Source: an uncultured delta proteobacterium (GTDB lineage Bacteria > Myxococcota > Myxococcia > Myxococcales > Myxococcaceae). Taken from it: a DNA stretch of 64,000 nt. The notes below the pieces were generated by a model that worked only from the letters and a program-made list of their open reading frames with translations, was not told where the DNA came from and made no database searches. The DNA is taken from NCBI GenBank assembly GCA_963771175.1, contig CAVYSY010000027.1, positions 32,001-96,000 of the forward strand. Reading direction: 5' to 3'. Position 1 is the first letter of the stretch. Every line of letters begins with the position of its first letter. The translations under genes and the position numbers were made by a program. Positions 979-30,374 of this stretch are shown one piece after another.

Positions 979-1084
979 CCGTCACCGGTCCAGTCAACCG
1001 GAGTGGAGCTGACGCGCCAGGACGAGCGGACGATGGCGACGCGTGGCAGGCTGCGGACCCTCAACCCCATACACGAGGGACTCC

Positions 1085-3272
1085 GTGCAACAGAGCCTGA
1101 AGCCGGCGATCGCCGCGCTGTCGCTGATGCTGCCCCTGACGTCACAGGCCAGTGCCAAGGGCGCCGTGCCCCCGCCGTCCGTCGCGGCGAAGAAGCCCGT
1201 GGTGGACACCTACCACGGCGTGAAGGTCGACGACCCGTACCAGTGGCTCGAGAAGAAGATCGACGACCCCGAGGTCCGCCAGTGGGTGGACGGGCAGACC
1301 GCGCACATGCGCGCGGTGCTCGACAAGCTGCCCTCGCGCGACGCCATCCGCGCGCGCCTCACCACGCTGATGACCCACAAGTCACCGGCTCACTTCGCCC
1401 TGGTGCGGAAGGGCGGCGTCTTCTTCGCGATGAAGTTCCAACCGCCCAGGCAGCAGCCCATGCTGGTGGTGCTGCCCTCGCTGGAGGACCCCTCCACGGC
1501 GCGCGTGCTGGTGGACCCGGTGGAGCTGGACCCGAGCGGAAAGACCACCATCGACTTCTTCGTCCCCTCGCCGGACGGCAAGAAGGTGGCCGTGTCGATG
1601 TCGAAGAATGGCACGGAGAGCGGTGACGTCACCGTCTACGACGTGGCCACCGGCAAGGTGCTGCCCGGCGAGGTGGTGCCCCGGGTGAACGGCGGCACCG
1701 CGGGCGGCAGCCTCACGTGGAACGGGGATGGCTCGGGCTTCTTCTACACGCGCTACCCGCGCGGCGAGGAGCGCCCGGCCGAGGACCGCGACTTCTTCCA
1801 GCAGGTGTACTTCCACAAGCTCGGCACGCCGACGGACACGGACACCTACGAGCTGGGCAAGGAGGCCCCGCGCATCGCCAACTACGAGCTCAAGACGTCC
1901 GAGGATGGCGCGTACGTGCTCGCCGTCCTGGGCAACGGCGACGGCGGCGAGTACTCGCTCCACCTGCGCGGGCCGCAGGGCACCTGGGCGCGGCTCTCGA
2001 CGTTCGAAGACAAGCTCATCGGCGCGGCCTTCGGGCAGGACGGTGCGCTCTACGCGCTCTCGCGCAAGGACGCGCCGCGCGGCAAGGTGCTGCGCATTCC
2101 GCTCGCCACGCCGTCGCTCGACAAGGCCACCGTCCTCGTCCCCGAGGGAGAGGCCTCCATCGCCGGCTTCCGCCCCACCGCCACCCGCCTCTACGTGATG
2201 GAGCAGCTCGGCGGCCCCTCGCGGATGCGCATGATGGGCCTGGACGGCAAGGACCTGGGCGTGGTGCCCACCCCGCCCGTCTCCTCCGCGGGCGGCGTGG
2301 TGCCCCTGGGCGGTGACGACGTGCTCCTGTTCAACAGCAGCTACACCGAGCCGCTCTCCGTGTACCGCTACGGCGCCAAGGACGGGAAGCTGGAGAAGAC
2401 GGCGCTGGGCCGCACCTCGCCCGTGGACACCCGCGACGTGGTGGTGGACCGCGTCATGTGCACGTCCAAGGACGGCACCCAGGTGCCGCTCAACATCCTC
2501 CACGCGCGCGGCGCGAAGCTGAACGGCAACAACCCCACGCTCCTCACCGGCTACGGCGGCTTCAACATCTCCCTCTCCCCGGGCCTCAACCCGCCTCAAC
2601 TTCGCCTTCATCGAGCAGGGCGGCGTGGTGGCCATCGCCAACCTGCGCGGCGGCGGCGAGTTCGGCGAGGAGTGGCACGCCAACGGCTCGCTGACGAAGA
2701 AGCAGAACGTCTTCGACGACTTCCACGCCTGCGCGAAGCTGCTGGTGGACAAGAAGTGGACGAAGCCCGAGCGCCTCGCCATCCAGGGCGGCAGCAACGG
2801 CGGCCTGCTCATGGGCGCGGCGCTCACCCAGCACCCGGAGCTGTACCGCACCGTGCTCGCGCACGTGGGCCTCTACGACATGCTGCGCGTGGAGCTCACG
2901 CCCAACGGCCAGTTCAACATCACCGAGTACGGGACGGTGAAGAACCCCGAGCAGTTCCAGGCCCTGTATGCCTATTCGCCCTACCACCAGGTGAAGGACG
3001 GGGTGAAGTACCCCTCGGTGCTCTTCACCTCGGGCGAGAACGACCCGCGCGTCGACCCGTTCCACTCGCGCAAGATGGTGGCCCGGCTGCAGGCGGCCAC
3101 GGGCTCCAAGCGCCCGGTGCTGCTGCGCACCAACAACATGGGCCACGGCCTGGGCACGCCGCTGGCCGAGTCCATCGAGGAGAAGGTGGACATCTACGCC
3201 TTCCTCTTCCACGAGCTGGGCATGAAGTACCGGCCGGTGGACGGCAAGGTGTCCGCCCCCGCGGCGAAGTAA
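1085..3272 (+). CDS. Secreted prolyl oligopeptidase (S9A); frameshift near 2590
   Basis: Signal peptide, DPYQWLE, YGGF, LRGGGEFG, GGSNGGLL nucleophile motif, DPRV, GHG; two ORFs joined by a 1-nt indel. Confidence 0.9.
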
Positions 3273-3282
3273 CCCCGCGGAC

Positions 3283-3316
3283 CCGCTCCCCTCTGCCCGC
3301 CGTGGGAGGGGAGCGG
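3283..3316. terminator. GC hairpin after the peptidase stop (terminator or REP-like)
   Basis: ccgctcccctc (3283-3293) pairs with gaggggagcgg (3306-3316). Confidence 0.55.
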
Positions 3317-3366
3317 AGACCGCCCCGGGCCCCTCACGCGGTCCCACGCCCGGAGGAAGTGGGCCT

Positions 3367-3391
3367 CTTCTTCTTCTGCTCGCGCAGCTCG
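3367..3391. repeat. Left copy of a 25-bp imperfect direct repeat (right copy 5208-5232)
   Basis: cttcttcttctgctcgcgcagctcg vs cttcttcttctgctcacgcaactcg, 23/25 identical; both read ELREQKKK on the minus strand. Confidence 0.8.
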
Positions 3392-3393
3392 TC

Positions 3394-4421
3394 GTGCCCC
3401 GGGTCTCCTCGGAGACAGCCGAGCCGCGAGCGCATCGGGATTTCGTTGATCTTCGTGTGACCGCCGTGGGCTTTGGCATCACCGCGGGAGGGTATCTTCT
3501 CTACTGCGAGGGGTTGCCGCTGCCCGTGCTCGTCCCCGAGTCGCATGTCGATCTCGGACTCACGAACGCAGTGCCGCTGAATGCATCCATCTACCCGGAC
3601 CGGGAGTCGGCCCTGCAGAAGTGGCGGACAATGCCCACGGGTCAAGACACGCGAGGTACGCCTATTACCGTGGAGCAGGGGGCGCGCTCATCGTGCCCAC
3701 CCTCTTCTCTCCGGCCACCACCCCCCGCATTGCCCAGACGATGCTCGAGGTGCGCAAACACCTGACAGAAACACTCCAGCGCGAGCTGAAGGTCCTCTTG
3801 TTGAGCCTGACGGGGACCAGGGTTCTGCAGGGAGTCTTCTCGAGCGTGGTGCGAGTGGGCTCGGAGCCAGCACTCCGACCGCCCGCCCAGAACAGGGGAG
3901 TCGGGGGCGAAGCTCCGGCGCCGCGACAACCGGTGACACGAGCAGCTGCACCCGATCCACAACCCGCTCCCGCTCCGGCGCCAACGGCTCCTGCTCCCGT
4001 GCCGGGCGCACCCGCGCCATCGCGGGGATTGGTCCAGGCGCTCACTGGCAACAACCCGACCGGACAGGTGGCTCCTGGTCCGCGCCTGCCGCAGGATGCC
4101 GCAGTCAGCACGAAGGTGCCCGCGGTACGTCGGTTGGACCGGCCCATCGGCTCCAGCCCGGTCCAGAATGCGCAGGTCCAGGCGGACATCGACTACCTGC
4201 AAAACCTGGGTGCCACGAACATCCGGGTGAACCAGCAGCAAGTCACAATACGCAACGGCCAGCGAGTGGGAGTCAATCGGCCGGACCTGCAGTTCGACTA
4301 TAACGGCCGCCGCTACCATGTGGAGTACGACACGCCCAGCTCGGGCCGTGGCTCTGGTCACCAGTCACGCATCACGTCCAACGACCCGAACACGGAAACC
4401 ATCCTCTTGATCGTGCCCTGA
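3394..4421 (+). pseudogene. Putative polymorphic toxin, probably N-terminally truncated, with a C-terminal restriction-endonuclease-like domain; frameshift near 3650
   Basis: ORFs 3394..3765 and 3621..4421 join into one protein; Pro/Ala linker followed by NQQQV..RVGVNRPDLQFDYNGRRYHVEYD (PD..E-like motif); followed closely by a cognate gene. Confidence 0.6.
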
Positions 4422-4437
4422 CGGGAAGGCGCAGCCG

Positions 4438-5167
4438 ATGACCGAGAACATGAAGGGACTGCTCCTTGATGACCGCTGGGCGCCCATCACTTCGGGAGAT
4501 GGGATTTCTGGAGACTGATGCGGAACATGCCGCTCGCGCCTTCGCGGCGTGGCAGGCAGGGCTGCAGGCGCCCCGTGGCATCGCCGTGGAAGTGCGCCCG
4601 GTCTCGGGCTCCCTGGAGCAGGCCCTCTCGTCCCTGCTGCCAATGACCAGTCCAGAGACACGGCGATACCTCTTCATTCCGACACGAAGCCCCTGGACGG
4701 CGTACGTCGAAAACGGGTGGGGCGGGACCGATGCCGCGAGCGCTATGTCCTACATGGCCCGGACACTTGGCTGCCGGGGCATGCGTGTGGTCGCCGTGCC
4801 CCACACCCTCCGGAAGGACAAAGGCCGCTATGGCGCCGTGATGCTTGAGGTGTACGGCCCACATCGGACAGCATGGCTCAACTACGTTCGGACCCTGGGC
4901 GCGTCCAATGACGGGGGCCGCTGGGTCTTCGACCAATCCGGCGAGCCCTTCCCCTTCGAGAAGCTGGAGCAGTACCAGGCACGCCGGGTGAGGGACCGGT
5001 TCACGTTCGACATGCTCAAGGAGTACCTGCGTCACCTGGGGCTGTCGCCCTTCGAGGAGGACTTCTACCTGCCGCAGGGCACCCCCGCCTGGCTGGTGGA
5101 GAAGACAGGGACGTTCGTCCCCGCTCAGACGGAGTACGCCCTGGCCCAGGCTCGGGAGCACTTCTGA
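4438..5167 (+). CDS. Putative immunity protein for the upstream toxin; frameshift near 4495
   Basis: Starts 16 nt after the toxin stop with a GGAAGG RBS; MTENMKGLLLDDRWAPITS joins EMGFLETD.. after removing one G; position is typical of immunity genes. Confidence 0.55.
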
Positions 5168-5195
5168 CACAGGGTCTGAAGGAACTTTCCTCGGC

Positions 5196-6724
5196 TCAGG
5201 CGCTCGGCTTCTTCTTCTGCTCACGCAACTCGCCATAGAGCGAGACGCGGCCGGCCACCGTGCCCGCAACCACGTTCTCCAGCGGGCGCAGCGCCCGAGG
5301 CAGCGGCAGCACCGCCCTCATTCGCCGCCGCACCTCGTCCTCCACCAGGCCTCGCAGCACCTCGGACTGCACCCGCCCCAGCGTGGCGGCCACCACGTAG
5401 GGCTCTGTTCCACGGGTGCCTCCTCCGGCCGCACCACCTTCATGTGGTGCACCGCCAGGTCATAGAAGCTCCGCCGCGCGCACTCGTCGTCCTCGAAGGG
5501 GAACTCCCCTCCGAGCGCCTTGCCCACGGCCAGCCCCGAGGTGAATGCCATCTCGTGCCCGGAGATGAGCCCCGTGTACTCCCCGCAAAAGTAGGTGCGC
5601 CGCTTGCCCTGGATGCGGTGCAGCTCCGACGAACGCACCGCATGCACCCCGTCGAATACCAGGTGCTGCCAGTGCTTCGTCTCCACCACCTTCGCCGGGT
5701 CGATCAGCCCCTCGGGCGGATTGCACGTGGCGAACAGGTCCTCGCCTCCCACCCAGTCCTGCAGGTCCGGCAGGTAGTAGTTGTAGTGCGCCCGCTCGAA
5801 GGGTCCCCGCGCCTCCGGCGTGACGTACGTGTACGCCGCCCACAGGCTCCGGTCCTCCGGCATTACCCGCGCATCCGTGTGCAGCACGATGGTCGCCGGC
5901 TCGTACTCCACCTCGCCGAGCAGCAGCGCCTCGTCCGAGGAGGGGTCGTCCAACAGCTTCAGCGCCGTGCCCGCCTCCGTGGCCAGGACCACCTGGTCGA
6001 ACCGGTGCACCGAGCCGTCCATGCACGTCAGCGTCACCCCGTCCCGCTCGCGGCGGATGGAGCGGACCCCACAGCCCGTGCGCACGCTCGATGCGAAGCA
6101 CGCGGACAGCCGCCGCACGTACTCGCGCGAGCCCTGCTTCACCGTGCGCCACGGCGTAGGCCCCACCAGCGAGTAGCCGCTCACCGGCCCGAAGGTGGCC
6201 GCCACCATGAACATCGACATCCGCAACAGGCCGATGCGCGTGACGAAGAGGACCGACAGCAGCGGCGCCAGCACCTTGTGCTTGAAGTCCTCCGAGTACC
6301 CCTCCTGCTCCAGGTACTGCTCCACCGTCAGGGGCATGTACTTCTTCGGGTGGGAGACGATCTCCGGCAGCGCGAGCTGGAAGCGGTCCACCTCGTGCCG
6401 AACGGACTCCCAGAACGCCGAGTCCCGCCCCGTGCGCCAGTGGCCACCCTGAAAATGGATGGACAGCTCCAGGCCCCGGCGCATCGGCTGCGTCTCCACG
6501 CCCAGCCGCCGGAAGAGCGCCGACAGGTTCGGATACACCCACTCGTGGTAGATGAGGAACCCGATGTCCACCGGCACCGTGCGGCCACCGCGCGTCACCT
6601 CCGCGGTGTGCGCATGGCCTCCCAGCACCGGCGACGCCTCGAAGAGCGTCACCTGATGCTGGCGGTTCAGGCTGTAGGCGGCGCCCATCCCCGCGATGCC
6701 GCCGCCCACGACGGCGACCTTCAC
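5196..6724 (-). CDS. FAD-dependent oxidoreductase (amine-oxidase fold, COG2907-like fatty-acyl modifying family); frameshift near 5400
   Basis: VAVVGGGIAGMGAA, FEASPVLGGHAHT, VDIGF, YPNL, QGKRRTYFCGEY; GTG start overlaps the FAAL stop. Confidence 0.8.
5208..5232. repeat. Right copy of the 25-bp imperfect direct repeat, inside the last codons of the oxidoreductase gene
   Basis: 23/25 match to 3367-3391. Confidence 0.8.
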
Positions 6725-8473
6725 GCAGCCTCCTCCATCAGCGGCTGCAGGCTGCGCTCCAGGTACGCGCGCTTCGCGGCCTGCCGTTGAATCTTGCCGC
6801 TGGACGTCTTGGGGATGCTCCCCGGCTTGAGGAACATCAGGTCGTGCAGCCGGAGCTGGTACGCGTCGTTGATGGCCTGACGCACCGTGTCCGTCGCCGC
6901 CTGGACGTCGAAGGCCGCGCCGCCCTGCTGCTGCTTCGTGTCCACCTCCGCCACCACCACCAGCCGCTCCTCGCCCTCCACCTCCACCGAGAAGGCCGCG
7001 CCACACCCCGGCCGCACCGCCGGCAGCGCCGCCTCCACCGTCCACTCGAGGTCCTGCGGGTAGTGGTTCTGCCCGCCGATGATGATGAGGTCCTTCCTGC
7101 GGCCGGTGATGTACAGCAGCCCGTCTCGCATGAAGCCCAGGTCTCCCGTGCGCAGCCACGTGCGGGAGTCATCCCCGCGGATGCGCGCGCGGAACGTCTC
7201 CTCGGACAGCTCCGGCTTCCGCCAGTAGCCCTGCGCCACGCTGGGTCCATACACCCAGATCTCCCCCACTCGCCCCTCCGGCAGGGGGTCGCGGGACTCC
7301 GGCTCCACGATGGCCAGGCCGTAGCCCTCCTGGGACTCGCCGCAGGAGACGATCTCCGCGGCGTTGGCGTCGCCCGCGGGCAGCGGCACCACCCGGTCCT
7401 CCTTGAGGGCCTCCTTGTCCACGCTCAGCGTCACCACGCCGCGCCCCTGCGCGCCCGGCGCCTTCAGCGTCGCCTCCGCGAGGCCGAACACCGGGAAGAG
7501 CGCCGCCGGGGAGAAGCCCCGGGGAGCAGAACGTCTCGATGAAGCGCCGCATGGTGCCCGCGCGCACCGGCTCGGCGCCGCAGTACGCGCTGCGCCACGA
7601 GGACAAATCCAATGCGGCCAGGGCCTCCGGCGTCGCCTTGCGCACGCACAGCTCGTAGCCGAAGTTGGGCCCTCCCGAGTGCGTCACCTTGAAGGCCGTC
7701 ACCGCCTGGAGCCAGCGCAGCGGGTGCTTGAGGAAGTCCGCCGGGGACATCAGGTACACCGGGTAGCCCGAGTAGAAGCCCTCCATCAGCCCGTCCACGA
7801 GCCCCATGTCGTGGAAGGACGGCAGCCACGTCACCGAGCACGAGTCCTCGCCCAGCTTCACGCTGCCCTGGATGTGGGCGACGTTGGCCAGCAGGTTGCC
7901 GTGGCTCACCATCACCCCCTTGGGCGACGAGGTGGAGCCCGAGGTGTACTGAAGGAAGGCGAGCTGCTCGCTCCGGACGCTGGCCGGAGACTCCAGCGCC
8001 GTCACGCCCAGGTCCTCCTGGTCGGTGGCCAGCCACTTCAGCTCCGCCAGGCCGGGCACCTGCTCGGCGAAGGCCGCCGCCATGGCGCAGATGTCGACGG
8101 TGGACAGCACCACCTTCGGGCGGCAGTCCGCGATGATGCCCAGCAGCCGGCCCAGGGTGCGCTCCAGCCGGGTGGGGTCCGGCGGGTAGGCCGGCACCGC
8201 CACCGTGCCCGCGTAGAGGCAGCCCAGGAAGGCCTCCACGTATTCCGCCCCCTGGGGGTAGAGCAGCAGCGCGCGCTCGCCCTCCACGCCGTGGGCCTTC
8301 AGCAGCGCGGCGATGGTGCGGGCCCGTTGATCCAACCCCGCGTAGGAGTGCGCCTTGCGCTCCTCGGTGCCACGCACGATGAAGGTGAGGGCCCTGCGCT
8401 CCGGATGGCGCTCGGCGCGACGATGAAGGATTTGCGCGAGCGATGTCGCGCCCGAGATGCAGTCAGAAGCCAT
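6721..8473 (-). CDS. Fatty acyl-AMP ligase (FAAL); frameshift near 7528
   Basis: AFLQYTSGSTSSPKGVMVSHGNL, WLPSFHDMGL, GGPNFGY, GAEPV, FGLAEATL, WLRTGDLGF, GRRKDLII, NHYPQDLE, IPKTSSGKIQR. Confidence 0.92.
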
Positions 8474-8506
8474 GGGGGTACTCCAATCCGAGAGGAGGGG
8501 GGTTCT

Positions 8507-9673
8507 CTACTGACGGGGAGGAAGCGGCGTGCCGTCGTTGCCATCCGAGATGCCGATGGCATTGGCGTACTCCTCATATCCGGCGGCGGGCCGCTCCGCC
8601 TTGCCGGCGGCGAGCTGCTCCCGGAAGCGCGGCACCGCGTCCACGTAGGAGCGGACCACGCCCACCGCGCGCAGCAGGCGGATGAAGAGGAAGGCCATGT
8701 CGAGCTGCGACGGCACCAGCCGCAGGTTGGCCGAGCGGGGGAACTTGTGGTGGTTGTTGTGCCACTCGGAGGCGAAGACGCCGTAGAAGACCTGGTTGAG
8801 GGCCAGCGTCCGATCGTCGAACTCCCAGCCCGGCATCTTCGCCCGCGGCCACCAGCCACCATGGCCGACGAAGTTGAAGTCGCGGATGAGGCAGGTGACG
8901 AAGCACACCGCCGCGTACCAGGCCAGCACGCACGGCACGCCGCCCACCGCATACGCCAACCCGGCCCACAGCACCTGCGCGACGAGCATGCGCACCGCGA
9001 GATGCCCGGCGTGCTCCACCGTCCCCGTGCGCCGGAACTGCTCATAGGTGCTGATGGGAAAGCCGATGTGGCTCACCGTCCTCGCCAGGTGCTCGTACTG
9101 CACCGGCGTCATGTCGGTGTTGAGCTTCGTCACCGACTCGATGGCCAGGTAGCTGGCGAGGCGTCCCAGGTGCGGGCCGTACGGGTCCCCCACCCTATCC
9201 GAGCGCTGGTGGTGCACCCGGTGGGGAATGGCGTAGGTGTCCTCGCGGACGGTCATGCCGTTGAGCCACAGGAAGACGCGCGCCAGCCAGGGGTAGCGGA
9301 ACTCGAAGGCCTTGTGCGAGCAGTAGCGGTGCAGCCACGCCGTGTGCGTCACCGTGGCCAGGAAGAAGGCGGAGACGGAGAAGTAGAGGGCGCTCTTCCA
9401 CGACAGGTGCCAGCCCACGAACGCCACCAGGCACCCCATCGTCGACAGATGGAAGAGCACGTGCAGCGCGGCCGGCAGCCGGCGGAGGTCGGCGAGGAAG
9501 TTCACCGCGCTCCACCACTCGCGCAGCGCCTCGCCCACGGTGGGCTTCTTCGGCGTGCCCTCCGGTGTGGCCCACCCGAAGACAGGCTCCTGGAGGACCC
9601 AGCCCGCCTTGTTGCCCACGGGCGAGGACGGCTCCCCCTCCTCGGAGAGCAACCGCCGGGCCGCCTCAGCCAT
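8507..9673 (-). CDS. Membrane-bound fatty acid desaturase (delta9-type His boxes)
   Basis: HRYCSH, HRVHHQRSD..GDP, WHNNHHKFP; hydrophobic helices. Confidence 0.9.
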   Translation of the reverse strand: MAEAARRLLSEEGEPSSPVGNKAGWVLQEPVFGWATPEGTPKKPTVGEALREWWSAVNFLADLRRLPAALHVLFHLSTMGCLVAFVGWHLSWKSALYFSVSAFFLATVTHTAWLHRYCSHKAFEFRYPWLARVFLWLNGMTVREDTYAIPHRVHHQRSDRVGDPYGPHLGRLASYLAIESVTKLNTDMTPVQYEHLARTVSHIGFPISTYEQFRRTGTVEHAGHLAVRMLVAQVLWAGLAYAVGGVPCVLAWYAAVCFVTCLIRDFNFVGHGGWWPRAKMPGWEFDDRTLALNQVFYGVFASEWHNNHHKFPRSANLRLVPSQLDMAFLFIRLLRAVGVVRSYVDAVPRFREQLAAGKAERPAAGYEEYANAIGISDGNDGTPLPPRQ

Positions 9674-10403
9674 TGGCCCAGCCCTCGCGCCAGCTCACGA
9701 TGCGCGCACCGCACACCTTCTCGAACTTGCGCTTCATCTGCAGCACGGTGGTGAAGTCGTTCTCCACCGCCACCGGCAGCTCGCACACGTGCCAGCCGTA
9801 GTGCTTGAAGTTGCTGGCTGCCCGCAGCACCTCGGGCTTCAGCTCCGGCTTGCGCTCCAGCAGCTTGGTGAGAATCTGGTAGCCGCCCTCCGCGTGGCGG
9901 AACTCGTCCACGGAGATGAAGTTCAGCAGCTTCGCCAGCACCTTCTCCTGGCACTGCGCCGCGAGCTGCCGGGCGAAATAGCCCGCCGCGTGCTCGGACC
10001 AGATGAAGTTCACCAGCTCCTGGACGGTGTCCTCGGGCTTGAAGTTGACGTGCTCGATGTTGCGCTTGCGGATCTCCACCAACTCCTCGTCGGTGATGCG
10101 CGGCTCGCAGCCCACGATGTCCAGGTAGCGCCGCAGGCTCCAGAAGTGCCGGAAGCCCTCGAAGCACTCCACCTGGAAGACCGAGGTGGCATCCACGTCC
10201 TCGTGGAGCAGCTTGATGAGCGAGACGGTGCCCAGCGCGTGGTAGGACTCGATGAGGGCCGTGCGCCGCACCTTGTCCAGGATGTCCGGCTGGCTCAGCG
10301 CGACCTCGCGGTCGATGTCCCCCCAGGGGATGTCCTTCTCCACGTTCCAGCGCGACTCCGACTTGGCGCCGAAGAAATCGTAATAGTAACGCTCCGTCGT
10401 CAT
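9666..10403 (-). CDS. Ferritin-like diiron protein (acyl-ACP desaturase/AurF-like fold)
   Basis: RW..DIPW..ID start, ALIES, FEGFRH, SEH, VDEFRH; ATGA overlap with the upstream gene. Confidence 0.75.
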   Translation of the reverse strand: MTTERYYYDFFGAKSESRWNVEKDIPWGDIDREVALSQPDILDKVRRTALIESYHALGTVSLIKLLHEDVDATSVFQVECFEGFRHFWSLRRYLDIVGCEPRITDEELVEIRKRNIEHVNFKPEDTVQELVNFIWSEHAAGYFARQLAAQCQEKVLAKLLNFISVDEFRHAEGGYQILTKLLERKPELKPEVLRAASNFKHYGWHVCELPVAVENDFTTVLQMKRKFEKVCGARIVSWREGWANG

Positions 10404-11377
10404 GGCATCCGCTCCGTGGAAGGAATCACTTCGCGCCACGCCGCGGGATCCGTCCCGTGGTACGCGACGAACGCCGCCACCCAGCGCTCCAGCCCGAAGG
10501 CGATACAGCCCGTGCTGGCCTGCTGCCCGTCCGGCAGGGAGAGGCCGAAGGTGCGGGAGAACGAGTCCCCGTGCAGGTTGAAGGAGGCGATCGCGAGGTC
10601 TCCTCCCTTCTGCCCGGTGACGTCCACCAACAGCTCGTACTTGAGCGACTGCGCCCGCTGCAGCAGCGTGCGCGCCCGGCCCTCCACCGCTCCGAAGAAC
10701 GGGTCCGAGGCCACGTCGATGCGCCCGGAGAGGCCGTGCGCCCTGGCGAACTCCACCACCTCCAGCAGCAGCTTCTCGCGCAGGCTGGCGATGGGCGCCT
10801 CGGGCCCCAGCAGGACGATCTCCCGCATGGTGAACTCCCACTGCCGGCGCAGCGGGGCGAACTCCCCGTGCTCGTAGCGGAAGCACCGGCCCTGGGTGGT
10901 GAGCACCATCGGCTCGCCGGTGATGGCGCGCCCCTCGAGCTCCGCGTAGCAGTGGTAGCAGACGGCGCCGGACAGCACCGCGCCCGACGAGCGCACCCGG
11001 GAGGCAGCCGTCGCCTCCACCCGCTCGCCCCCCTTCACCGCGTCCACGAACTGGCGCAGGGACGCGGTGTCCCGGTCCAGGCACATGGCGAAGGTGGCGT
11101 GGTGCGGGAAGGACTTGAAGTAGTCCGTCCGCTCCATCACCGAGATGGGCATCAGCGTGGGGTACTGGCGCTCGGAGGCGCCGTGCTTGAACGCCAGCTC
11201 GAGGAACTTGCGCTCGAAGTAGCGGAACAGCCACAGCGCGGGGCCGGACATGCCCAGCGTGCCGTTCTCGTACGAGCGCAGGTCTCCCCGCTCCAGCAAC
11301 TGGCCCACCGCCTCCGGCCGGGGCGAGCGGCCCGAGCTGAAGGCGAGGCTCTTCGGGTCCACCGTCAGGGAGCTCAC
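10400..11377 (-). CDS. Amino acid:[carrier protein] ligase (class II SerRS-like catalytic domain without tRNA-binding domain)
   Basis: YFKSFPH, AVCYHCY, CFRYE (motif 2), FTMRE, ASDPFF, KYELL, IASFNLH, TGCIAFGLER (motif 3); about 325 aa; GTGA overlap with the ACP gene. Confidence 0.85.
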   Translation of the reverse strand: MSSLTVDPKSLAFSSGRSPRPEAVGQLLERGDLRSYENGTLGMSGPALWLFRYFERKFLELAFKHGASERQYPTLMPISVMERTDYFKSFPHHATFAMCLDRDTASLRQFVDAVKGGERVEATAASRVRSSGAVLSGAVCYHCYAELEGRAITGEPMVLTTQGRCFRYEHGEFAPLRRQWEFTMREIVLLGPEAPIASLREKLLLEVVEFARAHGLSGRIDVASDPFFGAVEGRARTLLQRAQSLKYELLVDVTGQKGGDLAIASFNLHGDSFSRTFGLSLPDGQQASTGCIAFGLERWVAAFVAYHGTDPAAWREVIPSTERMP

Positions 11378-11637
11378 GCCTTCGCCTCCCCACCCGGGCA
11401 GAACGTGTCGGCGATGATCCGCGGCGTGCGGAAGTAGTTCATCGTCAGCTTGTCCTCGGGCACCTCGATGGAGAGCTCGCTCTCGATGAAGCCCATCAGG
11501 TCGATGATGCGCATCGAGTTGATGAGGCGATTCTCGAACAGCGCGGTGTCCCGGCCGATGTCCGCGGTGATGCCGTTCTCCACGCACAGCTTGCGAATGA
11601 AGGCGAGCAGCCGCTCCTCGAACTGATTCCTGTCCAT
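11374..11637 (-). CDS. Acyl/aminoacyl carrier protein
   Basis: 87 aa, acidic; LFENRLINSMRIIDLMGFIESELSI (Ppant Ser) and NYFRT. Confidence 0.85.
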   Translation of the reverse strand: MDRNQFEERLLAFIRKLCVENGITADIGRDTALFENRLINSMRIIDLMGFIESELSIEVPEDKLTMNYFRTPRIIADTFCPGGEAKA

Positions 11638-11650
11638 GGTGTGTCCCTCG

Positions 11651-12778
11651 TCAGCTCCGGTTACGTCCCCAGTCGGTGGCCACGCCGTGGCGCAGCACGT
11701 CGCGCAGCAACTGCGTCGCGGGCGGCGGCTTCACCCGCTCGCCGAGCAGCGTGTGCACGGGCCGGGCGTCGAACACCTGGGAGGCCAGCAGGTGCCCGTA
11801 CATGGTGTCCCCGAGCCGGACGACCTCGTGGGACTGCTTGTTCTGCGTCTGCAGCAGCGTGCGCCGCAGCAGCGTGTACGTGTCCTCGTCGACGATGTCC
11901 GGCGGGAGGAAGACCCCCTGGGCCCAGCGCCGCTCCGTCTCCGCGGACACCTCGGTCATGATGTCGATGAAGTCCCGCAGCCGCAGGCCCTCGTCCCCGT
12001 TGCCGATGTGGAAGGTGCGGCCCGGCTGGTAGTGCTCCAGGAAGAGCGTGAGCAGGGCGGAGGCCGCGTAGTCGTTGGACGACAGGTCCATCCGCGAGTC
12101 GTCGGTGCCCGGCAAGGCGCCCACGTGCCCCTGGTAGAAGAGCCGCATGAGCGAGTGCATGGAGTTGTACCGGGTCACCTCGCCGCTATCCCGGCCGATG
12201 AGGTAGGCCAGCCGGTACATGGCGATGGGCAGCTCCTTCATCAGCCCGCGCACGAAGTGCTCCGCCTCGTACTTGCTCTGCTCGTACGGGTTGACGAAGC
12301 CCGCCTCGTGCACCTCGTCCGTCTCCAGGAAGCGGCCCTTGCGGTGGCCCGCCACGAAGAGGGTGCTCACGTAGCCGACGCGCTCCAGCCGGCGGAAGGT
12401 GCGCACCACCTCGAAGACATGGCGCGTGCCGTCCACGTTGGCCAGCCGCGCCTCCGGCAGCGGAGCGTCCAGCTCCACGTTGGCCGCCGAGTGGATGACG
12501 TGCGTCACCTCGTCCGCCAGCCGCGCCGCGTCCTCCGGCGACAGCCCCAGCCCGGGCCGGGTGATGTCGCCCAGCACGGGCACGAACTGGCCCTCGGGCG
12601 GGCGCGTCGAGGCATCCGGCCACAGCTTCGCCGCCAGCTTCGACCAGCGGGCCTTGAGCACCACGGGCGAGGGGGCCCGGATGAGCGCGTACACCCGCGC
12701 CTTCGGCGTGTTGCGGGCGATCCAGCGCGCCATCTCCATACCGACGGCGCCGGTGATTCCAGTCAGGAACAGGTTCAT
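11651..12778 (-). CDS. Stand-alone thioester reductase / fatty acyl reductase-like extended SDR
   Basis: FLTGITGAVG, GDITRPGLGL, IHSAANV, NVDGT, YVSTLFVAG, YEQSK. Confidence 0.85.
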   Translation of the reverse strand: MNLFLTGITGAVGMEMARWIARNTPKARVYALIRAPSPVVLKARWSKLAAKLWPDASTRPPEGQFVPVLGDITRPGLGLSPEDAARLADEVTHVIHSAANVELDAPLPEARLANVDGTRHVFEVVRTFRRLERVGYVSTLFVAGHRKGRFLETDEVHEAGFVNPYEQSKYEAEHFVRGLMKELPIAMYRLAYLIGRDSGEVTRYNSMHSLMRLFYQGHVGALPGTDDSRMDLSSNDYAASALLTLFLEHYQPGRTFHIGNGDEGLRLRDFIDIMTEVSAETERRWAQGVFLPPDIVDEDTYTLLRRTLLQTQNKQSHEVVRLGDTMYGHLLASQVFDARPVHTLLGERVKPPPATQLLRDVLRHGVATDWGRNRS

Positions 12779-12811
12779 GGTGTGGGAGGTTCCGTGGGGG
12801 GGGCGCGTGCG

Positions 12812-13790
12812 TCAGATCCGCACGATGCTGCAGCCCCAGTGCGCGCCGAGCCCGAAGGAGAACATCATCACGTGGTCGCCCTTCTTCACCAGGCCCTGGT
12901 CGATGACGTCCTTGAGGTTGATCCAATTGTCCGCCGCCACCGAGTGGCCCTTGGGACGGATGTTCTCCGTGTAGATCTTCTCCAGGGGGATGCCGGTGAA
13001 CTTGCTGAGGATCTCCCAGCTCCGCAGGCTGACGTTGTGGGGGATGAGGAGCTTGATGTCCTCGCGAGCCAGCCCGCTGGCCTTGAAGGTCTTCTCCAGC
13101 ACGCGCTTGCCGGTGGGGAAGTAGGCGGCGAGCAGCTCGTTCTGGTGGCCGTCCGGGTCCCAGTAATAGCCGCGGGTGAGCGTGTGGTACGTCTTGAGCT
13201 GGAGGCCCTCGGGATCGCGCGACAGCAGCACCGCGCACGCCGAGTCGCTGCAGACGTTGTAGACGACCTCGCGCTTGATGCCGTCGGGGAAGACGTCCGC
13301 GTTGACGCAGAGGGCGTACTTCAGGTCCTCCATCTCCATGACGGCGTGGGCCAGCCACACCGCGTGGGACAGGGAGACGCAGCCCAGCTCGCTCAGGCCC
13401 ACCGTGCGCGCGTTGGACAGGCCCAGCTCGTCCTGGAGGCGCGTGCTGGAGAAGCGGAACAGCCCCAGGTGCGCGTTGTCCCCCGAGGGGTACTCGGCGA
13501 GCGAGTCGCCACGCGGCACCAGCGAGCTGGTGGGCAGCACGCTCGCGTTGATGAGCAGCCCCACCTCCAGCGGATCCACCCCGTGACGCTCCAGCAGCGC
13601 CTTGAGGGTCGTCGAAGCGAGCTGCGTGGCCGGCACATTCGACACCCGGCAGTCGCCGAAGCCGAAGTCCGCGCATCGTCTCGGGCGTGCTGACGAGGCG
13701 CCCCTCTTCCGCGAGTTGCTCGAGGCCGACCTGCCGCTCGGGCAGCGTGTAGTGGATACCGTGGATGCGAATGGTCGAGGACGGATTCAT
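12812..13790 (-). CDS. 3-oxoacyl-ACP synthase III-like condensing enzyme; frameshift near 13670
   Basis: ELGCVS (Cys), SDSACAVLL, IPHNV, GHSVAAD, FGLGAHWG; ATGA overlap with the PPTase gene. Confidence 0.85.
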
Positions 13791-14434
13791 GAGCGCACGA
13801 TGGCCAGCAGGTGGTGGTGCAGGGCCAGGAAGGTGAAGGCGAACTCGCGGGAAACGGGCTGACGCAGTCGGAGCACGCCCTCGCCGAGCTCGGGCTCCAG
13901 GGCGCGCAACGGAAGGGGCTCCGGCGGGCGGAGGGCCTTGTAGAGCGCCTCCTTCAGCAGCCACAGCCGCGGGGCCAGCTCCGGCTCCCGCTCGCAGCGG
14001 GCCCGCTCGGCGGGAGTAAGGAAGAAGTGCCACAGCCGCTCGGGGATGGGGGCCACCGGCTCCACGTCCACGCCCACCTGGCCGCGCGAGGTGACGGCCG
14101 CCACCGACAGGCCGCGCCCGTGGCTGAGCGACACCTCCAGGCGCCGCGAGCCCTCCGGCACGTGCAGCCGGGGCTCTCCCTGGGGGCCCGGCAGCACCTC
14201 CACGTGGCTCGGCGGACACTCCGGGCCGAGCAGCTCCCGAGCCACCTGCTTGCACACCCGGCGCCCGCGGAGCCACTCGTGCTGGCGAGGGCCGGGCAAC
14301 GCGGAGAGGACGTCCCGCTCGCGCTCGGACAGGAGCTCCCACCCGAGCGGCGAGGCCGGAGCCGGCGCCAGGACGCCGACGCCCACCTCATCCCAGCAGA
14401 GGAAGGAACCCCCCTCCGGAGCAGAGAGCGTCAT
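13787..14434 (-). CDS. 4'-phosphopantetheinyl transferase (Sfp-like)
   Basis: GEPRL, VSLSHG, VGVDVE, WLLKEALYKA; start approximate. Confidence 0.85.
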   Translation of the reverse strand: MTLSAPEGGSFLCWDEVGVGVLAPAPASPLGWELLSERERDVLSALPGPRQHEWLRGRRVCKQVARELLGPECPPSHVEVLPGPQGEPRLHVPEGSRRLEVSLSHGRGLSVAAVTSRGQVGVDVEPVAPIPERLWHFFLTPAERARCEREPELAPRLWLLKEALYKALRPPEPLPLRALEPELGEGVLRLRQPVSREFAFTFLALHHHLLAIVRS

Positions 14435-14532
14435 GCCTTGCATTACTCCGGGTTGCATAATTGGTGTGTAGAGTACACTTCGCCGACAAGCAAGGCCCCC
14501 CTGATTTTTCAGTCAAACCGGAGAGATTGACA
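14435..14532. promoter_or_regulatory. AT-enriched divergent promoter region of the lipid cluster
   Basis: Between divergent starts; small inverted repeat gtgta-gag-tacac (14466-14478). Confidence 0.4.
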
Positions 14533-14931
14533 TTGCCTGAAAACAACATCTTCGCGCGCATCGTTCGAGGAGAGATTCCCTGTCACAAGGTGTGGGAGGA
14601 CGAGCGGCACCTGGCCTTCCTGGACATCCGGCCGGTGCAGCCCGGACACACGCTGGTGATTCCGAAGGCGGACGGGGACTACCTGTTCGACCTGGAGCCC
14701 CAGCGGTACGGGGAGCTGATGCAGGCGGTGCGCACGGTGGCGCGGCTGCTCAAGGAGCGCACCGGGTGCCAGCGCGTGGTGGAGGTGGTGCTGGGCTACG
14801 AGGTGCCTCACGCCCACGTGCACCTGATTCCCACCGACTCCATGGCGGACCTGCCGCCCATCCTCGGCACTCCGGCGGAGCAGGCGGACCTGGCGGCCAT
14901 GGCGGCGCGCCTGCGAGGCCCGGGCAAATGA
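14533..14931 (+). CDS. HIT family hydrolase
   Basis: IFARIVRGEIP, AFLDIRP..PGHTLVIPK, HAHVHLIP histidine triad; TTG start after GGAGAG. Confidence 0.92.
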   Translation: MPENNIFARIVRGEIPCHKVWEDERHLAFLDIRPVQPGHTLVIPKADGDYLFDLEPQRYGELMQAVRTVARLLKERTGCQRVVEVVLGYEVPHAHVHLIPTDSMADLPPILGTPAEQADLAAMAARLRGPGK

Positions 14932-15179
14932 CGCCCTCCACGAAGACGGCGGAGGACATCCAGCGCTGGCTGGTGGAGCGCGTGGCGGGCTTCCTGGAGC
15001 TGACGCCCGCGGACATCGACGTGCGGGCGCCCTTCCAGCACTACGGGTTGGACTCGATGGAGCAGCTGCGCATCATCGGCGAGCTGGAGACGTGGCTGCA
15101 GCGGGAGTTCGAGGAGACGCTGCTGCGCCAGTACCCCACCATCGAGTCGGTGGCGGCCTTCCTGGCGAAGGCCGCCTGA
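14928..15179 (+). CDS. Stand-alone acyl carrier protein (FAAL/PKS type)
   Basis: IQRWLVERVA..YGLDSM..LETWL..YPTIESVAAFLA; ATGA overlap with HIT. Confidence 0.88.
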   Translation: MTPSTKTAEDIQRWLVERVAGFLELTPADIDVRAPFQHYGLDSMEQLRIIGELETWLQREFEETLLRQYPTIESVAAFLAKAA

Positions 15180-15239
15180 GGCCCGAGCGCCGCGCGGGGG
15201 CTTCGGCACGAGGAAGTGCCGGAGCCCACCGGGCGAGAC

Positions 15240-17077
15240 TCATGCCGCGCGCGTGTCGCCACTCTTCTCGGCGTCGCGGTACAGCTCCTCCAGCGCCTCG
15301 CCGAACTTCTTGAGCACGTTGCGGCGCTTGAGCTTGAGCGACGGCGTCAGCATGTCGTTGGCGGTGGTGAAGTCCTCGCTGATGAGCAGGAAGCGCTGCG
15401 GCTTCTCGTAGCCCTTGAGCCCGCGTGGACAGCTCGTTGATCTGCTCGCGGTAGAGCTGCTGCACCTCGGGCCGCTTGAGCAGCTCGGGGATGGAGGTGG
15501 TGTCGAGGCCCTTCTCGCTGGCCCACTTCTTCAGCGCCTCCATGTCCGGGACGATGATCGCCACGTTGAAGGGCTTGTTCTGCGCCGTGCATCATCACGT
15601 TGGCGATGACGGGCGAGAGCTTGCAGCGCCTGCTCGATGGGCACCGGCACCACGTACTTGCCGTTCTCCAGCTTGTACTGCTCCTTGATGCGGCCGGTGA
15701 TGTAGAGGAAGCCGTCGTCGTCGAGGTAGCCCATGTCGCCGGTGCGGAAGCCGCCGTCGCCGGTGAAGACCTTCGCGTTCTCCTCGGGCAGGTTGTAGTA
15801 GCCCATCATCACGTTGTGGCCGTAGACGACGATCTCGCCCTGCTCGGCGTCGCCGGTCGCGGCGCGTGTCGATCTCGACGCGCACGCCGGGGATGGCCTT
15901 GCCGACCGAGCCGATCTTGCCGGTGGCCCGGGTAGTTCGCGGTGGCGATGGGGCGACGTCTCGGTGAGGCCGTAGCCCTCGTAGACGGTGATGCCGAGGT
16001 TGTCGATGAACTCGGCGACCTCGCGCGAGATCGCCGCGCCGCCGCAGAAGGCGTACTTCAGCCGGCCGCCGAAGCGCTCGCGCACCTTGGAGAAGACGAC
16101 CTTGTCGAAGACGGCGTGCTGCAGGTCCAGCAGCACGCTGCTCTGCTGCCCTGCGCCGCGAGCTGCCTTGCGCTGCTTGGCCGCCATCCGAGGCCGCGCG
16201 TGAAGAGCATGCGCTTGATGGCCGACTCGGCGGCCATGCGCTTCTGCAGCCCGTCGTAGATGCGGTTGAAGATGCGCGGCACCGAGAAGAGCAGCGTGGG
16301 CTTCACCTCGGCGAGGTTGTCGATGATCTTCTCGACGCTCTCGGCGATGCCCATCGAGGCGCCCATGGAGAACAGGCCGTGGAGCTCGACGACCTGCCCG
16401 AAGGAGTGCGCCCACGGGAGGAAGGACGAGCGAGCGATCCTCCAGGTCATGCGGGAAGATCTCGTGCATGGCGCGTCACGTTGCGCGCGAGGTTCGCGTG
16501 GCTGAGCATCACGCCCTTGGGGTTGCCGGTGGTGCCCGAGGTGTAGATGAGGCCGGCCAGGTCCGCGGGCTTGGGCTGGGTGAGCACGGGGCTGGGCGTC
16601 TCCGCGCCGCGGCGCAGCAGGCACGCGATAGGAGTCCGTCTCGGTCTCGGTGCCGGAGAAGCGGATGATGTGCTCGAGCTTGGGCAGCGGCCGGCTTGAG
16701 CGCCTCGAGCTTGGCGGCGATGGCGTCGGTGGCGGCGAACACCACCTTGGCGCCGCAGTCATTGAGGATGTACTGCCACTCCTTGTCGAGCTGCTGCTCG
16801 TACATGGGCACGTAGGCGGCCCCCAGCGTGTACGACGGCATAGGCGCCCACCGCCCACTCGTGCCGGTTGTTGGAGATGACCGCCACCCGATCACCCGTG
16901 CGTCACGCCGAGCTGGGACAGACCTCCGCGCAGGTCGTCCACGAGCTGGCCGAACCGCGCATAGGACATCCACGTCCACTGCCCGTTCTTCTTCTCCCCG
17001 AAGAGCGGCCGCGGGCCGAAGGAAGCGGTGCTCTGCAGGAAGATCTCGACCAACGTGTCGAACTTGGGGCTCGCCAT
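15240..17077 (-). CDS. Long-chain fatty acid-CoA ligase (AMP-binding); several frameshifts
   Basis: Fragments [70 protein letters not shown] in alternating frames. Confidence 0.85.
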
Positions 17078-17258
17078 GTGTACCTGGGCTCCTTGGGTTC
17101 AGCGATGTGGGCGGTGTCGAAGGACCCCCCCCGATGCCTGGGAATGCCGGGAAGCTATCGCAACTCGAGTCCTACTGGATGGGTCTCCAAGCACTTTGGA
17201 CCGCACTCGAAGTGGAAAGTGGACATGACGCATGGAGTCATGGCGCGCGGCACGAGCC

Positions 17259-22712: not shown

Positions 22713-22761
22713 GAATCTGCTTCATACGCTGCCCTCTCGCCATCAATTAATCTTATCAACC

Positions 22762-25519: not shown

Positions 25520-25978
25520 TCACCCCGCCTCGACGTCCGGCACGGGCTTGAGGAAGTAGCTGGACAGATTGCGCGGGCTGCGGCGCAGGAGGTCCTCCAG
25601 CGTGTACTTGTCCAGCGTGGCCAGGAAGGCCCGCATCGCCTCGTTGAGCACGCCGATCAGCCCGCAGGCCGGGGCGATGGGGCAGGTGTTCGTCTTCGGA
25701 TCGAAGCACTCCACCACGTTGAAGTCCGGCTCCATGTGGCGCACCACCTGCCCCACGGAGATTTCGGACGGCGAGCGCGCCAGCACGACGCCCCCGGACC
25801 GCCCCGGCCGCACCTCCACGAAGCCGTGGCGTCCCAGTCCCTGCACCACCCGGACGAGGTGGTGCTTGGAGATGCCGTAGGCCTCGCTCACCTCGGCGGT
25901 GGAGATGACTCGATCCGGGTGGGCCGCCAGGTACAGCAGCACGCGCAGCGAGTAGTCAGCGTGAAGAGTCAGATGCAC
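25520..25978 (-). CDS. nsrR: Rrf2 family NO-sensing repressor
   Basis: DYSLRVLLYLA, ISKHHLVRVV, RGRSGG-like wing, three Cys (ECF..NTC..AC); matching boxes upstream of the operon. Confidence 0.8.
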   Translation of the reverse strand: MHLTLHADYSLRVLLYLAAHPDRVISTAEVSEAYGISKHHLVRVVQGLGRHGFVEVRPGRSGGVVLARSPSEISVGQVVRHMEPDFNVVECFDPKTNTCPIAPACGLIGVLNEAMRAFLATLDKYTLEDLLRRSPRNLSSYFLKPVPDVEAG

Positions 25979-26972: not shown

Positions 26973-26991
26973 GCGCGCGCCCTCCCGCTCC

Positions 26992-27381: not shown

Positions 27382-27402
27382 CTCGTTCCACTCCCCGGTT
27401 TG

Positions 27403-27446
27403 GATGCATGCAGCATGCATCTTTAAAGATGCATCCTCAATGCTCC
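27403..27446. promoter_or_regulatory. Tandem NsrR-type operators
   Basis: GATGCAT-gcagc-ATGCATC (27403-27421) and GATGCAT-cctca-ATGCTCC (27428-27446), just upstream of the globin start. Confidence 0.8.
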
Positions 27447-28216: not shown

Positions 28217-28243
28217 GGGGTTCCGTGCTCCCTGCGTACCGCT

Positions 28244-28783: not shown

Positions 28784-28811
28784 GTGAAGCGACCTCCTGG
28801 CGCGGTGGCGA

Positions 28812-30314
<1,503 letters not shown>

Positions 30315-30374
30315 CTACAGGTGGGCTCCCCCCGGGGTCAAGCCTCAGGGCCTGTCGGCCAGAAGCGGAACTTC

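Follow-up and report, generated by a model that had tools for sequence, protein, structure and literature searches.

How could a bacterium join an amino acid to a fatty acid without a nonribosomal peptide synthetase (NRPS)? The question is raised by a locus in the window analysed here, a 64,000-nucleotide stretch of DNA from an uncultured delta proteobacterium of the family Myxococcaceae (contig CAVYSY010000027.1). Between positions 5196 and 15179, nine co-oriented genes, one of which encodes a homologue of an aminoacyl-tRNA synthetase (aaRS), lie opposite a divergent pair. We conclude that the nine-gene set forms a real biosynthetic operon, conserved and belonging to an Archangium-like myxobacterium, that works with two free-standing carriers and is devoid of NRPS and polyketide synthase (PKS) parts. 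We propose that it would make an N-acyl amino aldehyde or alcohol lipid, and give this whole chain of reactions a probability of roughly 0.4.

The operon and its conservation

Raw lists of open reading frames (ORFs) are crowded because the window is about 69% G+C, and genes were called from ORFs together with third-position G+C, a frame plot, Pfam and NCBIfam. Third-position G+C and the frame plot indicate uninterrupted minus-strand coding from about 14458 down to 5196. The nine genes are given below in the order in which they are read, followed by the divergent pair and by a further gene upstream.

13787..14458, minus strand: Sfp-type 4'-phosphopantetheinyl transferase (PPTase); Pfam ACPS, E 8.9e-13, and 4PPT_N
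12812..13790, minus strand: KAS III-like thiolase-fold enzyme (KAS3); Pfam ACP_syn_III_C, E 4e-18; +1 insertion at about 13669
11651..12778, minus strand: stand-alone thioester reductase (TR); Pfam NAD_binding_4, E 5.5e-43
11374..11637, minus strand: acyl carrier protein 1 (ACP1), DltC-like carrier of the ligase, serine motif NSM; NCBIfam DltC, E 1.6e-6 (below cut-off)
10400..11377, minus strand: aa:CP (amino acid:[carrier-protein]) ligase, a truncated homologue of methanogen-type seryl-tRNA synthetase (SerRS), 325 amino acids; NF005479, PDB 3mey
9666..10403, minus strand: soluble ferritin-like diiron protein, DesA2/acyl-ACP-desaturase-like, 245 amino acids; family profile and AlphaFold model
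8507..9673, minus strand: membrane desaturase-like protein of the acyl-CoA (stearoyl-CoA desaturase, SCD) type; His boxes HRYCSH, HRVHH and HNNHH
6721..8473, minus strand: fatty acyl-AMP ligase (FAAL); AMP-binding and DIP2-like C-terminal domains; +1 insertion at about 7527
5196..6724, minus strand: LkcE-like flavoprotein of the monoamine oxidase family, about 507 amino acids when intact; Pfam Amino_oxidase, E 8e-25; -1 deletion at about 5384
14527..14931 (start estimated), plus strand: HIT-family hydrolase; Pfam HIT, E 5e-20, HAHVH motif
14928..15179, plus strand: ACP2, PKS-type carrier with a GLDSM motif; Pfam PP-binding, E 2.5e-12
about 15240-17230 (approximate), minus strand: FadD11-like long-chain acyl-CoA/ACP ligase; AMP-binding fragments in several frames

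Five of the eight junctions within the operon are overlaps, as read from the sequence: an ATGA joins PPTase to KAS3 and ligase to diiron protein, a GTGA joins ACP1 to ligase and FAAL to flavoprotein, and the diiron and desaturase genes share 8 nucleotides (nt). The other gaps measure 33 nt (KAS3/TR), 13 nt (TR/ACP1) and 33 nt (desaturase/FAAL). On the plus strand, the HIT and ACP2 genes overlap each other by an ATGA at 14928-14931. The initial annotation had described nine co-oriented genes in this order, five overlaps, gaps of 13 to 33 nt and a divergent pair; ORFs, codon-position G+C, Pfam and NCBIfam agree with it, the junctions exactly, and its gene assignments all hold in Pfam, NCBIfam and comparisons with PDB entries and profiles. 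It had missed the FadD11-like gene, the tenth co-oriented gene, which lies upstream of the operon. A scan of 4900-17400 returned no promoter-like site and one terminator-like site, inside a gene, fewer than in shuffled sequences; such a scan is uninformative in a myxobacterium of 69% G+C. The HIT gene could be opened at 14461, a start that we disfavour because non-triplet indels between species lie upstream of 14527, and PPTase has an alternative ATG start at 14433.

Pfam and NCBIfam were run on the 13 ORF pieces of the cluster, and 24 flanking ORFs were also scanned for domains. Ten of the 13 pieces matched Pfam at E<=0.01; ACP1, the desaturase and a 66-residue tail of the flavoprotein had no match at this threshold, and the first two were named by NCBIfam and by later comparisons. 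Among the 13 pieces and 24 flanking ORFs we found no Condensation domain, no PKS ketosynthase (KS) or acyltransferase and no NRPS adenylation (A) module, as the initial annotation had reported; no family dependent on pyridoxal phosphate (PLP) and no aminotransferase, thus no serine palmitoyltransferase; and no match to PF11583 (AurF).

Relatives were sought in one genome per species: 596 of 600 matched stretches were confirmed, the best 80 ligase loci were kept, and the 13 protein pieces of the window were compared with these by tblastn. Five Archangium loci (L001-L005) show 88 to 91% DNA identity over the main aligned blocks and the same gene order, and in L001-L004 every operon gene covered by the contig is present. 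The intact orthologous operon of A. violaceum Cb vi76 occupies L003:4143-16336. Synteny, whose absence elsewhere the initial annotation held would speak against its reading, is thus kept in Archangium genomes. In every operon gene the differences from L003 fall mainly at the third codon position (rates at the three positions of 0.028, 0.018 and 0.163 for KAS3 and of 0.067, 0.033 and 0.159 for FAAL); the least conserved gene encodes PPTase, with 65 to 69% amino acid identity to its Archangium orthologues. Across the 80 loci, KAS3 and TR both adjoin the ligase in 25, including loci of Gemmatimonadota, Acidobacteriota, Actinomycetota and Melainabacteria; the diiron protein is found in 19, and the HIT and ACP2 genes in 4. 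The arrangement is therefore more than chance: it is syntenic in Archangium under purifying selection, and its core recurs across phyla.

What this core consists of was examined by ORF clustering over 28 core-type loci, with Pfam scans. In 17 of them the gene order is KAS3, TR, ACP1, ligase and a diiron protein homologous to that of the window (hereafter DesA2-type); these come from Archangium, Gemmatimonadota, the acidobacterial Candidatus Angelobacter and one Myxococcaceae metagenome-assembled genome (MAG). In ten others, here called AurF-type, an N-oxygenase of PF11583 (E 1e-33 to 1e-40) lies between KAS3 and ACP1-ligase-TR, often accompanied by an AMP-binding ligase; the sources are Micromonosporaceae, Streptomyces bohaiensis, an Acidimicrobiia MAG, an Obscuribacterales MAG and Myxococcales/Kofleriaceae MAGs. 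Further neighbours in core-type loci are a BtaA-like DUF3419 protein (11 of 28), a GNAT protein of about 400 amino acids (12 of 28) and an MMPL exporter (9 of 28), and their occurrence in other phyla indicates a lipid product. NCBIfam, consulted for curated names of the accessory families, returned nothing for 9 of the 17 proteins scanned, among them all DUF3419, GNAT and COQ7-like proteins. The DUF3419, GNAT and MMPL genes follow the core, for example in L078:12113-16901, L038 and L056, and ICMT-like methyltransferases occur in AurF-type loci; NCBIfam holds a curated name for none of these four.

A quick tree of the ligases (79 rows, midpoint root) was also drawn; L059 is missing from it, the tblastn match of this locus being too short. 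Of the 35 rows on one side of the root, 31 come from core-type loci, at a split of weak support (SH-aLRT 19). The AurF-type ligases form one clade (SH-aLRT 100), to which the Archangium ligases are sister (SH-aLRT 95).

The enzymes and the proposed pathway

The ligase belongs to a family derived from aaRSs. Its best solved relative is Bll0957 (PDB 3mey; E 2.2e-33, 119 bits, residues 65-316); it matches NF005479 at E 1.8e-49 and 168 bits, for a curated cut-off of 357, and type-2 (methanogen-type) SerRS at E 2.6e-20, where only the C-terminal core of the latter is aligned (residues 218-505). It is thus a class II catalytic core lacking the N-terminal tRNA-binding domain. Residues C140, E169 and C291, invariant in 18 aligned sequences, align with the Bll0957 motifs aCY, CFRrE and GCvAFG, which we take to be zinc ligand sites. 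The assignment of the SerRS-like gene as an aa:CP ligase, made in the initial annotation, is borne out by this relative and these three columns. Identity to the proteins of Archangium violaceum and Archangium sp. is 93 to 94%. A dedicated carrier, ACP1, is encoded beside the ligase and overlaps its start, and relatives at 48 to 50% identity (P0009, P0011 and P0013) have an N-terminal carrier domain fused to the ligase, and in locus L043 too carrier and ligase are fused; because of these fusions we tie ACP1 to the ligase. Together these data support a role for the aaRS-derived ligase in putting an amino acid on ACP1, as predicted from homology. Characterised aa:CP ligases prefer glycine or alanine. 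The Bll0957-type ligases of Bradyrhizobium and Agrobacterium (PDB 3mey, 4h2s) share the truncated methanogen-type SerRS core, the Cys/Glu/Cys set and an adjacent carrier; however, the match to them is distant, and the ligase here is embedded in a KAS III/reductase/diiron operon.

Elsewhere the ligase keeps other company. In Sorangium, Bryobacterales, Paenibacillus and Streptomyces cellostaticus its neighbourhood is unrelated in content to the operon, and aa:CP ligases seem to serve several pathways that have nothing to do with one another. In Sorangium (L016) the gene lies beside an MprF-like membrane domain and a hexapeptide acyltransferase, whereas in S. cellostaticus (L010) it is accompanied by an ACP, an acyl-CoA dehydrogenase, a PCP-thioesterase, a P450 and an NRPS module.

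On the fatty acid side, the intact L003 orthologue of FAAL matches PRK05850 (E 2.9e-133) and FadD32 (E 2e-118) above the CoA-ligase models, under the curated cut-offs, which supports the prediction that FAAL adenylates a fatty acid. ACP2 weakly matches the N-terminal ACP region of Pks13 in NCBIfam (E 7e-7, far under the cut-off). The FadD11-like gene has an intact orthologue of 656 amino acids (L003:4143-6113). FadD32/Pks13 and JamABC-type systems are comparable in that FAAL, a PKS-type ACP and a membrane desaturase stand in one operon; a JamABC-type module unites a FAAL or acyl-ACP synthetase, a carrier and a condensing enzyme or membrane desaturase. In contrast to FadD32/Pks13, no PKS is present, and the part of the condensing enzyme falls to a KAS III-like protein whose triad is altered.

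This altered triad belongs to KAS3, whose orthologues are intact and 325 amino acids long. In an alignment of 15 members the active-site Cys is invariant. At the position of the FabH His, the DesA2-type members have His and all AurF-type members have Gln; FabH Asn274 is replaced by His (H282) in 15 of 15, with an invariant Asp (D287) at +5. The Cys-His-Asn triad of FabH is therefore not that of this family, and KAS3 scores 52 to 63 bits with the NCBIfam FabH models, whose cut-offs are 249 to 292. Solved relatives include CerJ, DpsC and the acyltransferase ChlB3 (E 1e-12 to 8.5e-19, the last value being that of ChlB3). These share the thiolase fold and, judging by alignment offsets, may share the His-x4-Asp found where FabH has Asn: H282 and D287 fall, by offset and not at residue level, at about 295/300 of CerJ and 297/302 of DpsC, which we take to be the His and Asp of their acyl-transfer triads.

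TR matches TIGR01746 at E 2.8e-36 and 125 bits, for a curated cut-off of 213, and its sequence contains the Rossmann motif (GxxGxxG) as GITGAVG and the catalytic YxxxK of SDR-type R domains as YEQSK.

The diiron protein was compared as a family profile of 15 sequences, which finds DesA2 of Mycobacterium tuberculosis (1za0; E 1.4e-10, with 117 of 245 residues covered). Its AlphaFold model (pLDDT 81) has R2lox and stearoyl-ACP desaturases as fold neighbours, only at E of about 1e-3 and TM-scores of 0.5 to 0.7. Residues E52, E82, H86, E137, E167 and H170 are invariant; the four-helix-bundle diiron site of acyl-ACP desaturases has two Glu and two motifs of the E-x-x-H type, but here the first of these reads E-x3-H. 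Among 8000 candidates scored, at least 667 (counted as 90%-identity clusters) proved to be relatives at E<=0.001; those listed are named at most 'hypothetical', 'acyl-ACP desaturase' or 'rubrerythrin', and several of those with a named source come from Gemmatimonadaceae or soil metagenomes. Kinship with the diiron partners of the sister loci was sought and rejected: hhalign gave a probability of 0.8% for the AurF-like and 37.6% for the COQ7-like proteins, and none is demonstrable beyond the ferritin fold. The membrane protein is, from its sequence relatives, a divergent SCD-type desaturase: it matches the NCBIfam DesA family (E 4e-15, below cut-off) and SCD1 (PDB 4zyo, E 5.5e-4), and its nearest Atlas clusters carry PF00487 (score 0.97).

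Lastly, the intact orthologue of the flavoprotein aligns with LkcE (PDB 6f7v) over residues 2-419 at E 2.6e-49. LkcE, the lankacidin amide oxidase and Mannich cyclase, oxidises an amide (PMC6162330). As the flavoprotein is clearly related to this amide oxidase, an amide-containing intermediate gains support. Another conceivable role is that of a fatty-acyl desaturase like UfaD (PMC7380195).

How might these proteins act together? Judging by homology, the Sfp-type PPTase would prime the carriers, the zinc-type ligase would attach Gly, Ala or Ser, as a small amino acid, to ACP1, and FAAL, perhaps helped by the FadD11-like ligase, would activate a long-chain fatty acid. This acid may then be loaded on ACP2, and the DesA2-like diiron enzyme may desaturate or oxygenate the carrier-bound chain, which the SCD-like desaturase could also modify. 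KAS3, with its Cys, His and His-x4-Asp, would hold the acyl group on its Cys and pass it to the amino group of aminoacyl-ACP1, whereupon TR would release the N-acyl-aminoacyl group from ACP1, giving an aldehyde or an alcohol. The resulting amide or amine could be oxidised by the LkcE-like flavoprotein to an imine or enamide, and the HIT protein may clear stray adenylates, aminoacyl or acyl, by hydrolysis. The lipid expected from such a chain would be membrane-active. We favour this pathway because the nine genes are tightly coupled, because KAS3 and TR together adjoin the ligase in 25 of 80 loci, because the ligases from such loci cluster in the tree (31 of 35 rows, at SH-aLRT 19), because substitutions in the operon genes concentrate at third codon positions, because the KAS3 His and Asp would, by alignment offset, fall on acyl-transfer residues of CerJ and DpsC, and because ACP2 is similar to the N-terminal ACP of Pks13, itself loaded by a FAAL, and FAAL to FadD32, these last two matches being weak and below cut-offs.

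Competing readings and known systems

Several observations weigh against the proposed acylation pathway. The amide bond ascribed to KAS3 is a prediction from sequence, and the best solved matches of this protein are FabH enzymes (E 9e-31), CerJ, DpsC and ChlB3 being no closer than true FabH. The amino acid used by the ligase is not predictable from the comparisons made. All NCBIfam matches of operon proteins score under the curated cut-offs, so that no operon protein is a named equivalog. At the positions of LkcE E64, Y182 and R326, reported as strictly conserved in LkcE-type cyclases (PMC6162330), the flavoprotein has Leu, Met and Arg, so that one of three (R326) is kept and, with E64 and Y182 replaced, the LkcE-type cyclase machinery is absent; it also differs from LkcE by about 85 extra C-terminal amino acids. 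FAAL, the membrane desaturase and the flavoprotein are Archangium-specific additions, outside the conserved core: the last two occur in 4 of 80 loci, and no FAAL was found in the flanks of the 15 non-Archangium DesA2-type loci, some of whose contigs are short. Even in Archangium, the complete genome of A. gephyra SDU49 (L005, about 11750-13600) keeps the operon without the desaturase and flavoprotein, which for this reason look like an optional pair. Three operon genes of the window carry single-base indels found in this copy only (+1 at about 13669 in KAS3, +1 at about 7527 in FAAL and -1 at about 5384 in the flavoprotein). Finally, a small COQ7/rubrerythrin-like ferritin present in 22 of the 28 core-type loci is absent from Archangium, whose pathway may for that reason differ from the rest. 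Where scanned, a second carrier follows this ferritin, and in L043 is fused to it. In this Gemmatimonadaceae MAG the COQ7-like ferritin-carrier and carrier-ligase fusions lie at L043:12487-13353 and L043:9623-10876, and they indicate which enzyme serves which carrier in the wider family.

Could the diiron enzyme act on the amino acid, and not on the acyl chain? The operon would then be an amino-acid-centred, NRPS-free counterpart of the pvf, ham and mgo clusters, in which an NRPS of A, thiolation (T) and reductase (R) domains (A-T-R) works with an AurF-like N-oxygenase and whose products are pyrazine N-oxides, valdiazen and fragin. Valine tethered to HamD/PvfC is reported to be oxidised by the AurF-like HamC/PvfB, and N-acylation to come later in the case of fragin (PMC11659414). 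By analogy, the diiron protein would oxidise the carrier-bound amino acid at nitrogen or carbon, TR would release an amino aldehyde, and KAS3, FAAL and ACP2 would supply the acyl chain, the task of the condensation protein HamF in the case of fragin, to give an oxygenated, possibly signalling, lipoamine. The shared elements are a carrier-bound amino acid, a diiron oxidase and reductive release, and ligase, ACP1 and TR share the logic of the A-T-R protein HamD/PvfC (PMC11659414). The AurF-type sister loci, 10 of the 28 core-type loci, copy this logic closely with an AurF-family N-oxygenase as diiron partner, and in the tree their ligases are the sister group of those of Archangium (SH-aLRT 95); the DesA2-type locus L043 moreover has a polyketide-cyclase-like gene beside PPTase, to be compared with hamE. 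However, the diiron protein of the window is not AurF-like (the 0.8% above); among solved structures it is related to acyl-ACP desaturases and R2lox, proteins that have fatty acyl chains as substrates or ligands; and no homologue of HamA, HamB or an aminotransferase was seen among the 13 pieces and 24 flanking ORFs. The hardware differs as well, since there is no NRPS: an aaRS-derived ligase takes the place of the A domain, a KAS III-like enzyme that of the condensation (C) domain, and the diiron protein is DesA2-like. We regard this scenario as unlikely, yet worth keeping in mind.

Two further scenarios would change the bond that KAS3 makes, and both appear improbable to us. Seryl-ACP1 might be converted into aminomalonyl-ACP1, which KAS3 would condense decarboxylatively with the FAAL-loaded acyl group, following a FadD32/Pks13-like logic, before reduction by TR; the product, a 2-amino-3-oxo-alkanol resembling 3-ketosphinganine, would be a sphingoid-like base made without PLP. 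The pairing of FAAL with a carrier like the N-terminal ACP of Pks13 suits such a C-C bond, as does the Cys-His-His of the DesA2-type KAS3 proteins, which resembles the triad of the condensing KS I/II enzymes; GNAT, BtaA-like DUF3419 and MMPL neighbours in other phyla would fit the tailoring of a ceramide-like lipid, and no PLP enzyme was found in the operon (13 pieces and 24 flanking ORFs). But nothing points to serine specificity, and characterised aa:CP ligases prefer Gly or Ala; all AurF-type KAS3 proteins have Gln in place of the first His; and no enzyme of the operon is known to make aminomalonyl-ACP, which in zwittermicin biosynthesis is made by acyl-CoA-dehydrogenase-like enzymes, absent here. 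The route is an inference throughout, and we hold it to be a long shot. Lower still do we place KAS3 as a priming ketosynthase that would unite an aminoacyl starter from ACP1 with malonyl-ACP2 into a gamma-amino-beta-ketoacyl thioester, reduced or cyclised to a tetramate or pyrrole-type molecule, the fatty-acid genes then being unrelated tailoring genes or neighbours. FabH enzymes as best solved matches of KAS3 would fit, and the non-Archangium DesA2-type loci do have ACP2 without an acyl-activating enzyme; yet none of the 15 aligned members keeps the FabH Asn, FAAL, the desaturases and the MMPL and BtaA-like neighbours indicate a lipid, and translational coupling ties FAAL and the flavoprotein to the operon.

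An azoxy cluster of the azodyrecin/valanimycin type was also considered and set aside. The azodyrecin cluster shares a ferritin-like protein and a desaturase with the operon, but its chemistry is different, and the tRNA-dependent VlmA, the flavin N-hydroxylase and the VlmO/VlmB pair that such clusters are reported to use (PMC9379638) are all missing here.

How new is the system, then? The initial annotation knew of no characterised cluster with this gene set, and full-text literature searches aimed at the set, which define the scope of this statement, returned none like it. Each enzyme family is known, and a carrier-bound amino acid, acylation and reductive release amount to the NRPS-like A-T-R logic of pvf/ham. 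The operon differs in its equipment: the loader derives from an aaRS, the joiner is KAS III-like and has an unusual triad, carriers and reductase stand free, and the oxidases are of ferritin type. It is tempting, if doubtful, to see in the KAS III/reductase/ACP/ligase/diiron core an unrecognised NRPS- and PLP-independent route to nitrogen-containing lipids that many soil bacteria share (Gemmatimonadota, Acidobacteriota, Actinomycetota, Myxococcota and Melainabacteria). Such a route could even lead to sphingoid-like bases, with a thiolase-fold enzyme doing the work of serine palmitoyltransferase. The product may be a common unseen lipid or signal of soil bacteria, since the diiron partner has at least 667 relatives, several of those with a named source being from Gemmatimonadaceae or soil metagenomes. 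The aa:CP ligases were reportedly first described in 2010. A passage of a 2022 review states that their biological role 'remains unknown' (PMC9437257), and the route would, if true, give them a first physiological one. The operon family sets one aa:CP ligase clade in a defined, testable pathway of about nine genes. The operon would also add two replaceable parts to the thiotemplate repertoire, an aaRS-derived loader for the A domain and a KAS III-like joiner for the C domain, and the intact orthologues in cultured Archangium strains make experiments feasible.

Frameshifts and neighbouring genes

Is the copy in the window functional? Frameshifts were called by alignment with the five orthologous Archangium loci. 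The three operon indels given above are absent from every orthologue that covers the site, and these orthologues are single intact ORFs; because the deletion at about 5384 shifts the frame of the flavoprotein tail, the latter appears as a separate ORF of 66 amino acids (5196-5396). Within the aligned part of the window, frameshifts are much denser in the FadD11-like gene than anywhere else, with 13 non-triplet indels between 15584 and 16894 common to at least three orthologues, and 15 non-triplet insertion events when compared with L003 alone. Counting all non-triplet indels common to at least three orthologues, there are 20, of which 17 are insertions in the window, 15 of them single-base. 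This pattern looks like consensus errors of an unpolished assembly.

The alternative is that the frameshifts in KAS3, FAAL, the flavoprotein and the FadD11-like gene are real, so that the operon is non-functional and decaying in this strain. All four broken genes are intact in the orthologues that cover them, the FadD11-like gene combines its 15 insertion events with a flatter codon-position pattern against L003 (0.09, 0.069 and 0.156), and A. gephyra has already lost two operon genes. However, the broken operon genes keep a strong third-position bias and 87 to 97% protein identity to their orthologues, and with 17 of the 20 shared non-triplet indels being window insertions, one of them in an unrelated prolyl oligopeptidase gene of housekeeping type, the pattern is that of assembly errors. 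Decay of this copy, whatever the pathway may be, thus seems to us rather unlikely.

The prolyl oligopeptidase gene (1013-3460, plus strand), in which Pfam found the N-terminal propeller domain only, carries a window-specific single-base insertion at 2594 relative to four orthologous loci, which suggests that frameshifts are not confined to the operon. The segment between the peptidase gene and the operon (about 3289-5193) has no counterpart at this place in L001-L004; its ORFs, at 3581-4303 or 3642-4364 and at 4454-5167, have no Pfam match, and 4008-5159 matches another place in the A. gephyra locus L005. Further along the window, at 25520-27534 on the minus strand, an Rrf2-family regulator adjoins a ferredoxin-reductase-like protein (Fer2, FAD and NAD domains) and a bacterial globin. 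This group, near cytochrome bd oxidase genes (20369-22721) and ATP synthase genes (27812-31844), looks like a small nitrosative/oxidative-stress unit.

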